Assembly: GCA_050173015.1 (NCBI GenBank)
Contig: JBFXLE010000003.1
Coordinates: 1 to 64,000, forward strand
Direction: 5' to 3'
Length of the DNA: 64,000 nucleotides
Source: Calditrichaceae bacterium
GTDB taxonomy: Bacteria; Calditrichota; Calditrichia; Calditrichales; JBFXGD01
Position 1 is the stretch's first letter. Every line of letters starts with the position of its first letter. This document shows positions 1-3,000 of the stretch, piece after piece. A program made the position numbers.

Positions 1-3000
1 GATGAAAAATGAACTTTTTATAATACCATGTTAAAAACAGAGCATGTAAATGTTGGATTGGTGAGAAATAATGTTCAGCTCTTTAATAAAAATATTTTTT
101 TACACTTTTATGAATTAGTCAGGCTAACCATTTAATTTTTTGTAAAAGGTAAGTATAAGCTGCTTGGTAAGCTTTATCACTATGTTTTGCACTTACTAAT
201 AAAGGTACTGACTTCAGTATGTTTAATGCTTTTACACTTTTCTTTTTTAGAGCTTTTAAAAGCAAATTGTTAAATTTTGGCGCATAGTATGGGCTTAGTA
301 ATTCGATAAAATCAGGGGATTTGAAAATATATTCTTGGCGAAAATGAATAAAGAATTTAGTCTCACCAAAATAAAGGAAATTGTTAAGTTCTTTGTAATT
401 ATATAAGAAATAAAAGAATTCTACCTTATTGTTACTTTCAAAGTGATCAAAAGAGTTCAAGACTTCCGATTTAGAAAATTCGATCTTATTTATTGTAATA
501 GATTCTGTATCACTTAATTCTATTTCTGCTAATATTTTCTTTTTAGATTTTTTTATTAATAAAGAATCAAGTTGTGATAAAGAAGTCAATTGAATGTCTA
601 ATAGATCAAAGGGATTGAGATATTTCATAAACCTGTTCCATTAGTTTGAAATGAAATTTAAGAGAACATTATCAGTAGTACAAAATGGAATATATTAAGC
701 AACTAACGGCCTGCGTTAACTCGCCCAAAACCAAGGGCCAGTGAATTCCATGTTACAATTGTACACGCCCGGAACGAAAAAATAAAAATTGACTGAACGC
801 GTTTGGGGTCGGAGTTGAAACCCTTGTTAGCAATAAATTTTACCGACTATTTTTAATTTTATCAATATTATCATCATACCAGTTGCCCCACTTTTCAAGT
901 AAAACTTGTCCCATTATAATTTTTTCAGCATCATTGTTTTCATAGCCATCAATGAATAATTCAAGCCCCGAAATAAACTCTTTTTTATAATGATCACCAA
1001 AACCATTCAAAACTTCATTTAGTTTTTCTATATCAATTTGAACAGCTTCTTTTAAGGCATCCTTTTTAAATGAGATAACTTTATTCATAATAGTATCATC
1101 AATCAGAACAAAAGATTCACCTTGATTAAGTAATCTTGTTCCATGGTTTGAATAATCAATTGATTTTATAAAATGCTCAATATGAGATATATCTGTAGTA
1201 TTTGAAAATATATAAAAAGGAATCAGAAAGTATGAGAGAAAAATAATTATTGTGGCAAGAATTTGACTATGCTTTTTAAAGATTGAAACTAATGTCATAT
1301 ATCCAATAAATCCCACAATGAGAACAATAAATGCTGACCACCACGGATTTACGAAAAATGAAATGATAACGGAACCCCATTGACACATAAATCCTAATAC
1401 TGCTATCCACCCAGCCTTACTAATATCAAAAGCTTTACCAACCGGCCATCCTTTTTTATGTGCAATTCCTTGGTAAGATGTAACCATAAAACCACCAATA
1501 CAAGCAATCGAAAGAATCATAAATTTTGTTATATCCATAATACTATCCTTTGGTTGCTAACGTAGCGGCGGATGAGCCGCAAGGCCTTGTGCGCTTGCGC
1601 TCAAAAGGACTTGCCGGTTCGATTCGCCTGATAGGCCGTTAGGGGCGGCCGGGAAGGCGGATTGAAAAGCCGCCGCTACGATAGGGCCGACCGTTTAGGT
1701 CGGTCCTATCGCTGAGCATAAGAGGATTAACCGCTTGTAGATTAATCCTTCAGGAATGCGCCATCCGGCGGTTAATTCCTACTTAATGCTGTTGTTAGCC
1801 ATGCTTTTGATTTATTTACAATAATTACTCATCTTTTTTAATGATAACTTAACATTGTTATGATTGGGCAACACACTATTCTTTATCAAATGTTCAAAGT
1901 TTTTATACTCTTTATTATCAAGGACTATTTTTATTGAATTTTGATATTGGGATTTGATTTGTGGAAATTTTTCATCCGCTAATAAAATGCCTGATTTTTT
2001 AATAAAATTGATTAAATCCATTGAGTAGTTATAATTATCTTTTAATGAACCTGAAACATATAAAGAATAAATATTTTCCGGAAATAAAATAACATCAAGT
2101 GGATGGTTAACCATAGTTGAGTCAATTTCTAAATTAAGAAGATTCTTTGGTTCTAAATAAACTATTAAGCCCTTTTGAAAATATTTTATCAAGTTTACCT
2201 TTTCCCCAACCTTTATAGAAATTTCCTTTATATCTAATTGATTCAAAATTTTATACGGAATTATTACATTTTGTTCAGCATTTTGATTTACAAAAGATAA
2301 TACCCAATCTTTATCTCTAAATAAATCTGAATTATCCATGAAGGAATAACCAAGAACATCAATTACAAATCTATCGTCTTTAAAATATGTAGAGATAAAA
2401 AGATCTGATGTCCAAAAAGATGTGTTCGTTGCTGTTACATCTGAAGAAAAATGAATAATAGGGTATCGTTCACCGTCAATAATTTTGGAACAAATAAAAA
2501 AATTCAATTTCTTCGGAACAATTTTTTTTGGATAAAACATTTGAGAATAGCCACATGTTATCAGAAGTAATAATGTAAAAATGAATGACTTCATTCCACT
2601 TAATTATCCTATTTTTATTTGCATGGCATAACATATTGATTAGACGCCTCTGATATTTATCATTTTATTCTAATATTGGAAAACTTTTTCTAAATATAGC
2701 CATTTTTTTCTAATATTAGAAAAACAAAATTGTCTAATATTAGAATAAAATCGTGTTAATTGACCGATGCTACTTTTTCTACTATTAGAAAAACAACTCA
2801 ACCCGATACTATCCGTTCTGTCAATTCCAGCTTTTGTACTAAATCGTACCGTAATTCCCATACCTTTTCAATCTTATTCCATTTTCCACCCAGAGATTTT
2901 ACTTTAGTCCTTAAATCTGTTTCACCATAATCCACTTTGATTTTAACGATTTTGTTTTTAGGAATTTTATTTACATTTAATTCCCATGGTTGAACATCCA

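Follow-up and report, generated by a model that had tools for sequence, protein, structure and literature searches.

A non-coding structured element at integron crossover points: a candidate attC-derived mini-cassette

The cassette array of this Calditrichaceae bacterium carries a 149-nt structured element that is inserted at the integrase crossover point of an attC site, in antisense orientation to the cassette genes, and that belongs to a mobile family found in several phyla. We put the probability at about one half that this element is an ORF-less mini-cassette derived from an attC site, which the integron integrase (IntI) moves and which functions in the form of folded DNA of the bottom strand rather than as an RNA gene. 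All coordinates refer to the window, that is, the whole stretch of 64,000 nt that was analysed.

The element and its insertion point

The limits of the element were set by comparisons of empty and filled sites and by breaks in contigs at 1710/1711. The survey's finding, a structured element at 1553-1711, was right as to its presence but not as to its limits, since 9 nt of R' flank (GTTGCTAAC) on the left and 1 nt on the right were in excess. A three-way-junction domain is followed by a terminal R-box-like hairpin, and the following features were recognized:

701-832, plus strand: neighbouring attC without insert (R' AACTAAC ... R'' GTTAGCA), identified by eye only
840-1538, minus strand: cassette ORF B, 232 aa, no Pfam family; start codon 23 nt from the element
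1555-1561, plus strand: R' box of the resident attC (TGCTAAC, bottom strand), the target; pairs with R'' at 1794-1799 in the single-stranded DNA fold
1562-1710, plus strand: the element, 149 nt
1562-1571, plus strand: 5' strand of P1 (GTAGCGGCGG), partner of 1670-1679
1574-1620, plus strand: H1, base GAGCCG/CGGTTC, from fold and covariation
1621-1663, plus strand: H2, with an internal R''-like GATAGGC; canonical members have GTTAGCC...GGCTAAC here
1670-1679, plus strand: 3' strand of P1 (CCGCCGCTAC), from fold and covariation
1680-1710, plus strand: H3 hairpin, GATAGGGCC...GGTCCTATC, a GAT/ATC variant of the family's GTTRRRY...RYYYAAC hairpin
1711-1800, plus strand: remainder of the resident attC (bottom strand), with spacer GCTGAG, L' CATAAGAGG..., variable tip, L'' and R'' GTTAGCC (1794-1800)
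1812-2594, minus strand: cassette ORF A, 260 aa, no Pfam family; its attC bears the element
2626-2632, plus strand: empty target GCATAAC, at the junction of the array and a conserved platform

The element starts directly after the AAC of the resident R' box and lies antisense to the cassette genes, with the attC arms on its far side, in agreement with the earlier description of an insert inside an attC. Its G + C content is 0.62, compared with 0.19-0.30 in the flanking cassettes, and no ORF was found in it. The region 2798-3151 on the minus strand matched no significant Pfam family. Record 25 of run X4 carries cassette A (1711-2627) and, past 1711, sequence unlike that of the window.

Four comparisons of empty and filled sites placed the boundary at AA|C or AAC|, a range that includes the integrase crossover point. 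In L086, the element is located exactly at the position of the window's GCATAAC|ATATTG (2626-2638), and the flanks are 95.1% identical over 1873 aligned columns. It also occupies the window's 2626-2632 junction in a congener (G038), and the same joined form was observed in run X1. The third comparison is between the window's attC and the homologous attC without insert that had been reported on contig C4 and is indeed present at C4:4978-5078; the fourth is between two paralogous cassette junctions in L074. The survey had listed the want of an empty/filled pair as a weakness, which is removed by L086 and the three further comparisons. No target duplication was made at the insert, and the insert boundary is ambiguous by 1-2 nt, a span that covers the crossover AA|C; an IntI-type insertion without boundary shift was rejected, as this ambiguity is needed.

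Among the copies with a visible 5' end that were found by BLAST within the phylum, 13 of 14 are preceded by AAC and one by AAT, and AAC precedes all four copies that were found by the covariance model alone, which bears out the earlier observation on this trinucleotide. Most members, on the other hand, were gathered by matching to a pattern in which AAC and 15 bases at the 5' end are prescribed, so that the AAC and the core conservation of these copies are partly present by construction.

The orientation was found to be fixed, with one site and one strand used. Among the distinct copies, 68 have a left flank of 250 nt or more; an antisense ORF start lies within 120 nt in 58 of these, compared with five that have only a sense ORF end there, and all 12 matches of an attC profile are on the element's strand. 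No copy was seen at the top-strand R'', which also reads RYYYAAC. IntI is known to cut selectively at the R' of the bottom strand. Relative to the other attC sites, copies within arrays and copies at attI thus keep a single orientation.

These data bear on the alternative of a non-autonomous single-stranded DNA transposon, in the palindrome-associated style of IS200/IS605, or another small mobile element, which a transposase encoded elsewhere would insert 3' of (Y)TAAC. This explanation would account for an insertion always after TAAC without target duplication, the hairpins at both ends and the similar end word, and IS608-type insertion has the same geometry. However, the top-strand word would be equally available and is not used (58 versus 5 of 68 copies), and the cut site of the element is inside the stem of a terminal hairpin, where that of IS608 is not. 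Moreover, none of the 37 right-flank ORFs from 22 loci indicated a recurrent Y1, TnpB or other transposase, no gene-bearing longer form occurs among 214 loci, and nothing else that resembles the element, nor any matching ends, was found in the window's genome. The attC-like L boxes and the concerted changes of R boxes described below would also be without a role, and we consider this origin quite unlikely.

Distribution of the family

The covariance model R1, which scores 95.6 bits on 1562-1679 of the window copy, gave 15 matches in 7 of 86 Calditrichota genomes, much as in the survey (16 matches, 7 of 78 genomes), and BLASTN detected the element in 6 of the 86. The covariance model also recognized the family in 52 of 124 loci from metagenomes and in 27 of 90 from genomes, the latter including metagenome-assembled genomes of Anaerolineae, Melioribacteraceae and Tectomicrobia. 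The earlier figures of one in 80 metagenome loci and six other Calditrichota genomes were thus understated, and this large family is not confined to Calditrichota. The units range in length from 112 to 190 nt, and no longer relative with a gene between its ends was found among the 214 pattern-anchored loci. A crude regular expression called 92 of these 214 loci true, and the covariance model was used instead. A 19-mer from the 3' part matched 15 loci in genome contigs, but 10 of these, from outside Calditrichota, were not otherwise similar to the element and were discarded as chance matches; a 15-mer matched at least 120 loci in viral contigs, by our own rough estimate a number at chance level for its length.

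Copies also occur at attI or next to intI, where there is no attC hairpin, and recurrence both at the crossover end of attC and at attI was therefore upheld. The copy that had been noted about 270 nt upstream of intI corresponds to G042:C20, about 280 nt upstream of a frameshifted intI. Another (L080) is about 200 nt from the N-terminus of intI, L121 is a further example on the attI/intI side, and in L342 the element is one attC (~180 nt) away from the stop codon of an integron integrase whose TIGR02249 score, 444 bits, is well above the cut-off (265). Among the 37 right-flank ORFs, two are integron integrases and one is a DDE fragment, and there was no match to Y1, TnpB, IS110 or reverse transcriptase. 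A tBLASTn search with the IntI of G043 detected no intI in the window, the G038 contig or G000 beyond ordinary tyrosine recombinases.

The five-copy genome with unlike attC arms that had attracted attention before is G004, in which the three full copies are 97.3-99.3% identical and are located beside different attC arms. To judge by these sequences, the copies in G004 look recently spread. A difficulty for the mini-cassette explanation is that a copy is present in nearly every attC of one cassette run there, and insertion from attC to attC would therefore be required, not the favoured attI route. The window's own genome harbors one copy, as reported. This copy is probably stranded, because it is of the GAT/ATC variant and its genome is without intI. 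As a counterpoint, GAT/ATC is present not only in the window copy but in 8 of 21 hairpin types, and yet the copies in G004 look recent.

Such copies also have to be weighed against the idea that the element is an immobile appendage of attC, a rearrangement scar formed by inverted duplication of an arm and spread only together with cassettes. The core is indeed an inverted repeat of an attC-like arm, the element folds clear of the host attC, and the crossover just outside it would let it travel with the upstream cassette. A scar of this kind would nevertheless leave unexplained the near-identical copies of G004 (97.3-99.3%) beside unrelated attC arms, the copies at attI, the precise empty/filled pairs with homologous flanks on both sides, the occurrence of one identical terminal hairpin next to three different right flanks (L088, L137 and L163), and the presence of one family across several phyla. 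We regard it as very improbable, and the element as mobile.

Fold, strand and attC-like anatomy

Folded as RNA, the plus strand reaches -93.7 kcal/mol (z -7.32), which none of 200 shuffles equalled, and the minus strand -76.2 (z -6.55); the high stability attributed to the element is thus well founded. With DNA parameters, the bottom strand gives -68.8 kcal/mol and the top strand -59.1. In an alignment of 55 distinct rows that was fitted to the covariance model, 97.1% of the cells of 26 pairs are paired, compared with 87.1% in shuffles (0/500), and 131 cells show double changes, compared with 44.2 in shuffles (0/500) and 4-29 in slid controls; positions 2 and 3 of P1 contribute 9 and 24 double changes. 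The covarying helices of the survey were accordingly recovered. Covariation, by its nature, cannot distinguish RNA from single-stranded DNA.

On these grounds, the element might also be a small RNA gene on the plus strand, antisense to the cassettes and carried as a passenger in attC, for example for regulation of cassettes or of the integrase. Besides the very stable fold and the covarying helices, such a gene would fit the preference of G.U-type pairs for the plus strand (53 G.T cells versus 9 A.C cells in the helices) and a sub-threshold alignment over the whole length to the small RNA family Clostridiales-1 (RF01699). The latter, the sole Rfam match, scores 28 bits against a gathering score of 48, 20 bits too low for membership, and no Rfam match was obtained on the element in 12 other loci, which agrees with the earlier view that it has no Rfam family. 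The G.T bias can be explained without RNA, because the favoured strand is the one that integrons fold as DNA. Furthermore, no promoter or terminator was found in or beside the element, and no shared promoter is possible outside it, because the left flank of each copy is the 5' region of a different cassette. The conserved bases are all located in helices close to the junction; the loops and linkers vary, and hairpin tips are even inverted between close copies (L348/L351, L130/L155 and L160/L058). Many copies also bear internal deletions, between short repeats, or truncations. The RNA reading is therefore the weaker one, given the folding strand, the missing signals, the invertible loops and the junction-proximal conservation, and we judge it unlikely.

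Several known RNA or repeat motifs were considered and rejected. A hammerhead core would require CUGAUGA in place of CGGAUGA, and there is no GAAA; the T-loop-like GGTTCGATYC only spans the H1/H2 junction; the loop GUUAG, which as the complement of the target CUAAC could suggest a bridge or seek RNA, is present in the window copy only and absent from G038 and G004; and the GTAG word of REP sequences is lost by covariation in other copies.

As bottom-strand single-stranded DNA, 1555-1800 folds such that R' (1556-1561) pairs with R'' (1794-1799) around the element. The R' to the left of the element is complementary to the resident R'' at 7/7 positions in L077, L081 and L096, at 6/7 in the window and L073, and at 5/7 in L134. 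By the crude criteria that were applied, a clean attC was recognized in 6 of about 30 right flanks, and some right flanks are attI-like. Two features of the element speak against the mini-cassette explanation: the 10 bp of P1 form an uninterrupted stem that lacks both an unpaired spacer and an extrahelical base, and the lowest-energy fold sequesters the attC-like L boxes. The word GCGAAGC, an exceptionally stable mini-hairpin as DNA, is present in 10 of the 21 terminal hairpins.

The survey had regarded the element as a guest or accessory of recombination sites. The notion of an unrelated guest was not sustained, as the element is built from attC-type modules, namely the R-box hairpin at its right end, an attC-like 5' half and, in GC-rich members, a second R-box hairpin in H2. 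The terminal hairpin of canonical members reads GTTRRRY...RYYYAAC, and with the 3' half of this hairpin the element has an R'-like end of its own. The triplets GTT and AAC are the conserved feature of attC sites. Among 21 distinct H3 hairpins, 12 are GTT/AAC, eight, including that of the window copy, are GAT/ATC, and one is GCT/AGC, the right-end triplets being AAC, ATC and AGC, respectively. As judged by eye, the 5' half follows the order of a normal attC: a spacer, L boxes with one extrahelical base, and R''. H1 has an alternative fold in which GCGGATGAGCCG and CGGTTC(G)ATTCGC form a duplex that resembles L'/L'', a single G being extrahelical. Also by eye, this half (...CATAAGCCGCC...GGTCGGCTTGATGCAATGTTAGCC) resembles the resident attCs (...GATGAGCCGCC...GTCGGCTCCATCCGCAAGTTAGGC). 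A profile of 13 ordinary attCs, which found 12 ordinary attCs, gave no match to the 5' half at E <= 0.1; this profile (R2) uses sequence only, because RNAalifold found no base pair in the MAFFT alignment of the 13 sites, and a search for pairs by column failed because their 3' halves are out of register.

The R boxes of the element change in concert. We denote the internal R'' of the 5' half as R''(1) and the two sides of the terminal hairpin as R''(2) and R'(2). In 36 of 38 copies, R''(1) and R''(2) have the same central base, according to a table that was re-read by eye, the regular expression behind it having lost register in several rows. The copies of L099 and L103, with 95% identity, differ at 12 positions inside the element, three of which replace GCT in R''(1), GCT in R''(2) and AGC in R'(2) with GAT, GAT and ATC. 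R''(1) is independent of its partner in H2 and is therefore matched to R'(2), and the concerted changes indirectly suggest that the right end would pair with the internal R'' after the ends have been joined.

A proposed mode of movement and comparison with known systems

From position and anatomy, we infer that movement depends on IntI, and the mini-cassette explanation may be put as follows. The anatomy, insertion point, orientation, mobility and concerted R-box changes are established by the data above; catalysis by IntI, the circular form and a function at the level of DNA are proposed. Read along the bottom strand, the target ...RYYYAA|C is followed by a 6-nt spacer, an L'-like box, a variable hairpin tip, an L''-like box with one extrahelical base (CGGYTC-N-ATCCGC) and R''(1). 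An inverted and shortened copy of the arm then pairs back onto the first arm to form P1 and H2, and the element ends with the hairpin R''(2)...R'(2), closing with RYYYA(A/T/G)|C. In a putative excised circle, R'(2) would be joined to the spacer, and an attC of normal appearance would result, with R'(2)/R''(1) as its R box; neither such a circle nor a read across joined ends was seen. After cutting the bottom strand at A|C, IntI could insert the circle at any IntI crossover, be it attI or an R' in some other attC. The integrated element would fold upon itself into the three-way junction and hairpin, and the host attC would therefore still be able to close its R'/R'' box around it. If this life cycle is correct, the structure would act as single-stranded bottom-strand DNA. 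As no cargo was seen, we read the element as selfish or, at most, accessory.

A possible but doubtful variant is an integron parasite with a DNA conformational switch, in which one fold would be a complete attC and a stabler fold would mask it. The open fold would present the R'(2)/R''(1) box and the L box with its extrahelical base and could be moved by IntI. In the stabler fold, the inverted second arm would hide the attC and tuck the insert out of the host attC, so that the host cassette would stay mobile and the parasite be kept. Under such a switch, lineages with GAT/ATC would represent variants able to avoid being excised again. On a wilder reading, the structure might also have a part in replication, by priming or directing the synthesis that resolves the single-strand exchange by IntI.

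Integron arrays are usually seen as adaptive gene stores and attC sites as passive signals. If the mini-cassette explanation holds, the integron machinery would have its own genomic parasites or accessories, located at attC and attI crossovers in Chloroflexota, Calditrichota and other phyla, and such units could change the excision, order or expression of cassettes; a switch, if real, would make this the first cassette with no cargo other than a regulator of its own recombination site. Annotation is affected as well: attC finders will miss or split the composite sites, which measure about 250 nt, and one may easily take the insert for a structured RNA. The family would also offer a natural series of folded single-stranded DNA substrates, with GTT/AAC, GAT/ATC and GCT/AGC cores and with masked or open L boxes, which could serve to test what IntI reads.

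Like VCR-type attCs with branched variable tips, the element would be a bottom-strand single-stranded DNA hairpin structure with R and L boxes, an extrahelical base and a variable tip, a layout recognized by eye in its 5' half. In contrast to an ordinary attC, it has an inverted second arm that hides the L boxes when the fold is at its most stable, P1 is perfect, and the core sequence is conserved across phyla, while attC sites are said to conserve mostly structure. It resembles REP/BIME and MITE-like repeats in being short, GC-rich, hairpin-forming, non-coding, multi-copy and prone to decay. These repeats are scattered between genes and moved by RAYT or IS transposases, whereas the element is restricted to IntI crossover points.

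Integron cassettes without an ORF have been documented (PMC11014356, PMC6557892). They are described from Vibrio and oral Treponema-type integrons, where they have been studied as promoter carriers, and consist of an ordinary attC and a non-coding body. The present element is likewise found in arrays, in fixed orientation and without an ORF; its left end is at the IntI crossover, and its right end has the AAC of a crossover in 12 of 21 hairpin types. It differs in being 112-190 nt as a whole, in having no promoter-like site, in forming one family across several phyla and in its body, which consists of an R-box hairpin and a second, inverted version of the unit's own attC arm. The element was not found described in the literature searched, which comprised openly accessible main texts.

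IS1111-attC elements and group IIC-attC introns are described as inserting site-specifically into attC, where they use the bottom strand and have an antisense orientation relative to the cassettes (PMC3001079, PMC11187229). The element shares these three properties. According to the same papers, the known elements insert near the 5' end of attC (PMC3001079), exceed 1 kb, and encode a DEDD transposase and a seekRNA in IS1111-attC and a ribozyme with a reverse transcriptase in group IIC-attC (PMC3001079, PMC11187229). Compared with what is reported there, the present element is at the 3' (R') crossover, about 150 nt long, non-coding and target-like. Membership of IS1111-attC is not supported, there being no ORF in the element, an R' (3') position and no recurrent transposase nearby. 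Membership of group IIC-attC would require group II ribozyme domains (domain V/VI) and usually a reverse-transcriptase ORF, and a scan for Intron_gpII, covering the window and 12 loci, gave no match on the element. The same scan found a true group II intron at L093:1226-1304.

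A discrete insert at the integrase crossover

At the start of the window, 2.6 kb are occupied by an AT-rich cassette array with minus-strand reading. A composite site of 246 nt separates ORF B from ORF A, and in it a GC-rich element stands between the R' box and the remainder of an ordinary attC.

Features of the array, the composite site and the element
119-628 (-), array ORF, no Pfam family
840-1538 (-), array ORF B, no Pfam family
1555-1561, R' box TGCTAAC (bottom-strand reading, which is the window's + strand)
1562-1710 (+), element block, 149 nt, GC 62%
1562-1571 with 1670-1679, helix P1 of the element
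1574-1620, helix H1 of the element
1621-1663, helix H2 of the element
1680-1710, separate hairpin H3 of the element
remaining ordinary attC (+), spacer GCTGAG, L' CATAAGAGG..., L'', and R'' GTTAGCC at 1794-1800
1812-2594 (-), array ORF A (cassette A), no Pfam family
beyond the array, conserved platform, then tRNA-Leu at 3549-3635

The survey's finding had placed a structured element at 1553-1711; the element is there, but 9 nt of R' flank had been included. Its report of one copy in this genome was confirmed, and nothing else resembling the element occurs in it.

The lack of an empty and filled pair, a weak point until now, is met by four comparisons (junctions marked by slashes). Metagenome contig L086, 95.1% identical to window 2629-4499, carries an element between ...CACATAAC and ATATTGATTAGACGCC, and the empty window site reads GGCATAAC/ATATTGATTAGACGCC. 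The congener G038 is arranged as L086, and a joined form of the G038 type is present in sequencing run X1 as a contig linking 1710 to 2662. The insert-free homologous attC that had been reported does exist (C4:4978-5078), with CTCAAC/GTTAGCA on the top strand, its window counterpart being CTCAGC/element/GTTAGCA. Finally, two paralogous cassette starts in L074 read ...GCCCAAC/GGCTTGTGTTAGCC when empty and ...GCCCAAC/element/GGTTTGCGTTACCC when filled. In all four comparisons the inserted block is G...A(T/A)C; the shared bases allow a one-base shift to C-G...A(T/A), with which both junctions fall at AA/C. Integron integrases (IntI) cut the bottom strand at AA/C. The AAC noted earlier before the element recurred in 13/14 and 4/4 copies from sets without selection for AAC. 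Taken together, the element is a discrete insert at the integrase crossover.

Fold, folding strand and DNA-like behaviour

As RNA, the element folds at -93.7 kcal/mol (z -7.3), the opposite strand being weaker. With DNA parameters, the bottom strand of 1555-1800 reaches -68.8 kcal/mol (z -7.3), against -59.1 kcal/mol for the top strand, and R' and R'' are paired around a four-way junction of the P1 domain, H3 and the attC arms. Rfam gave only a sub-threshold match, as already observed (Clostridiales-1, 28 bits against a threshold of 48).

Covariation was assessed on 55 distinct rows aligned to R1, a covariance model built from 30 diverse full copies, the alignment being fitted to the model. 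Paired cells amounted to 97.1% (87.1% when shuffled; none of 500 shuffles equalled that), and both-side changes to 131 cells, falling in 9/26 pairs, against 44.2 shuffled (0/500) and 4-29 in slid controls. Independently, RNAalifold on a MAFFT alignment recovered the identical three helices, with double changes in 8/26 pairs. In P1 and in the H1 base, the 5' strand is dictated by our search pattern, but these bases vary with compensation in copies found independently of it: the H1 base is GATCGT/ACGTTC in genome G019, and GCGGGTC...CACCCGC replaces GCGGATG...CATCCGC in G056. Among helix cells, G.T outnumbers A.C by 53 to 9, so the folding strand is the window's + strand, which is the integron bottom strand. 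A 98-nt subfamily (L362:1921-2018, L084, L123, L164, L308 and L374) is a nearly perfect palindrome whose two 5' and 3' strands can pair over approximately 18 bp, and R1 therefore scores both strands.

Several features recall DNA. In near-identical copies (L348/L351, L130/L155, L160/L058), the hairpin tips of H2 or H3 are exact reverse complements, that is, flip-flop inversions bounded by R-box-like arms. GCGAAGC, which has special stability as a DNA mini-hairpin, occurs in 10/21 terminal hairpins. Many copies are truncated or carry deletions between short internal repeats, the loops and linkers lack conservation, and no promoter- or terminator-like site was found in window 1400-1900. In L300:1975-2030 and L057, a decayed copy in top-strand reading consists of the terminal hairpin followed by a mini-hairpin of the two P1 strands alone, upstream of a cassette ORF.

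Distribution, strand choice and attI copies

BLASTN found copies in 6/86 genomes of the phylum, and R1 gave 15 matches in 7/86, close to the recurrence first described. The family is large. A 21-base 5'-end pattern (AAC, G, two free bases and 15 fixed bases) was matched at no fewer than 124 loci in metagenomes and at 90 in species-representative genomes. Counting sense-strand R1 matches with E <= 1e-9, 42/100 metagenome loci plus 10/24 others were positive among the matches listed, as were 24/76 genome loci plus 3/14 others; the negative loci are truncated copies or chance matches in GC-rich coding DNA. With L374 and L379 left out, the positive genome loci comprise many Anaerolineae/Chloroflexota MAGs, four Calditrichota MAGs, a Melioribacteraceae MAG, a Tectomicrobia MAG and one unclassified bacterium MAG (L362). 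An Eisenbacteria MAG and a Planctomycetaceae MAG gave matches that are weaker and cut. Two copies lie approximately 1 kb apart, which is cassette spacing, on single contigs of L073, L058, L078, L109, L115 and L337. In the Melioribacteraceae MAG, two copies flank a cassette that consists of a PIN/RHH toxin-antitoxin pair (L337:565-1289, +). Five copies occupy about 7 kb of one array at L018 (G004:C13, 6719-13443), two of them internally deleted, with H2 joined to H3 or H2 removed. In the run best covering the window, read depth is 121-176 over the element against approximately 35 alongside and contigs break at 1710/1711, indicating that the sequence is repeated in that community.

The RYYYAAC word is also present on the top strand, at R'', yet the element uses just one of the two strands available to it. 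Sufficient left flank is available for 68 distinct copies. In 58 of these an antisense ORF begins no more than 120 nt away (typically 22-60 nt), the arrangement expected of an R' end, and in 5 that interval holds solely a sense ORF end. All 12 matches of an ordinary-attC profile lie on the element's strand in their locus, four of them abutting its right end. The left-flank R' is complementary to the R'' beyond the arms at 7/7 positions in L077, L081 and L096, 6/7 in the window and L073, and 5/7 in L134.

Copies occupy attI as well. The copy near intI was found again on G042:C20, after GCCTAAC and approximately 280 nt upstream of intI, with no attC arms on its right side. This integrase (G042:C20:46596-47539, -) consists of three adjacent TIGR02249 pieces in three different frames, and is thus frameshifted or mis-assembled. 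In L080 an intI N-terminus starts about 200 nt downstream of the element, in L121 the element adjoins an intI C-terminus, and in L342 one attC (about 180 nt) separates the element from the end of an integron integrase (TIGR02249, 444 bits against a cut-off of 265). The element of G038 and L086 lies at the array/platform junction; in the window cassette A intervenes, as expected if a newer cassette entered at that junction ahead of the element. Element and platform show similar divergence from L086 (95.5% and 95.1% identity).

Platform positions 2662-2800 hold four copies of the inverted-repeat word (T)TCTAATATTAGAA(AA). This stretch is kept in G038 (86% over 103 nt) and L086, and may represent the integrase-binding portion of an attI that has lost its intI. 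Beside it, a start-less frame of 117 codons (2798-3151, -) holds ...VKDIDIEYKQIAVRGQPG..., reminiscent by eye of a tyrosine-recombinase motif; its sole Pfam match is DUF5710 (E 0.08), and tBLASTn with an IntI gave no match to it.

An architecture of attC-type parts and the candidate enzyme

The element had been regarded as a structured guest of unknown nature. It is real and better founded than before, but we replace that reading with one to which we give about even odds (roughly 0.5): an attC-derived, gene-less mini-cassette, moved by IntI and functioning as folded DNA of the bottom strand.

The terminus of canonical GC-rich members is a hairpin GTTRRRY...RYYYAAC, and their H2 holds a second such pair, e.g., GGTTAGCC...GGCTAACC. 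In 21 distinct terminal hairpins the triplets are GTT/AAC (12), GAT/ATC (8, the window's type) or GCT/AGC (1), always complementary. Read by eye, the stretch that starts at the target AAC and reaches the first GTT (the 5' half) is laid out like resident attCs on the same contig: R' box, spacer, L', variable tip, L'' with one extrahelical base, short spacer and R''. L' is GATGAGCCGCC in the element and CATAAGCCGCC in a resident attC, and L'' is GTCGGCTC-C-ATCC and GTCGGCTT-G-ATG, respectively. The core's 3' arm repeats the 5' arm as its reverse complement, a few bases standing in for H1, so that GCGGATG / CATCCGC / GCGGATG / CATCCGC can pair in two ways: as two attC-like hairpins or as a three-way junction, the latter being the fold of highest stability and the one that P1 covariation supports.

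On a register-corrected re-reading by eye, the central base of the internal R''-like box, R''(1), equals that of R''(2), which pairs with R'(2) in H3, in 36/38 copies. L099 and L103 are 95% identical, with 12 differences within the element; three of these fall on the central base of R''(1), of R''(2) and of R'(2) (GCT, GCT, AGC against GAT, GAT, ATC). The H2 partner of R''(1) is CTAGC in both; R''(1) nevertheless changes with the other two, the simplest reason being that R'(2) must pair with R''(1) too. Such pairing arises once the right end is joined to the left, where the order R'(2), spacer, L', tip, L'', R''(1) would make a complete attC, and the concerted change is taken as evidence for such a joined form. 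Alternatively, long-range pairing within the linear form could account for this concerted change.

The mini-cassette reading takes IntI as the putative mover, and the element's position, its choice of strand, its use of attI, its R-box ends and its attC-like boxes all favour this enzyme. Against IntI, P1 is perfect and leaves no spacer unpaired, the window's lineage has non-canonical GAT/ATC triplets, a small profile of ordinary attCs gave no match to the element's 5' half, and intI was not found in the window's genome or on the G038 contig. The GAT/ATC lineage looks recently spread in G004, where copies are 97.3-99.3% identical. Among 37 right-flank ORFs from 22 loci, Y1, TnpB, IS110 and reverse-transcriptase families were absent; these ORFs have cassette-like matches (PIN/RHH, GNAT, adenosine deaminase, DUFs) or none, and include two integron integrases and one DDE fragment. 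Among the 214 pattern-anchored loci listed, no extended version was seen that carries a gene between its ends.

According to PMC3001079 and PMC11187229, two kinds of element target attC, IS1111-attC insertion sequences and group IIC-attC introns; both insert into the bottom strand, antisense to the cassettes and close to the attC 5' end, and encode their own enzymes. Compared with these as described there, our element lies at the opposite attC end, is ten times smaller and encodes nothing. ORF-less cassettes are already known and have been examined as promoter carriers (PMC11014356; reportedly also PMC6557892). Among them the family would stand out as a special type, conserved and lacking cargo, and the literature searched, supplements and subscription journals being outside its scope, does not describe it. 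The Rfam scan showed no group II intron signal on the element and did detect one at L093:1226-1304 (+), an Intron_gpII domain V/VI (49.6 bits against a threshold of 40). This signal, probably from a group IIC-attC intron, lies approximately 700 nt to the left of the element and shares its array and strand.
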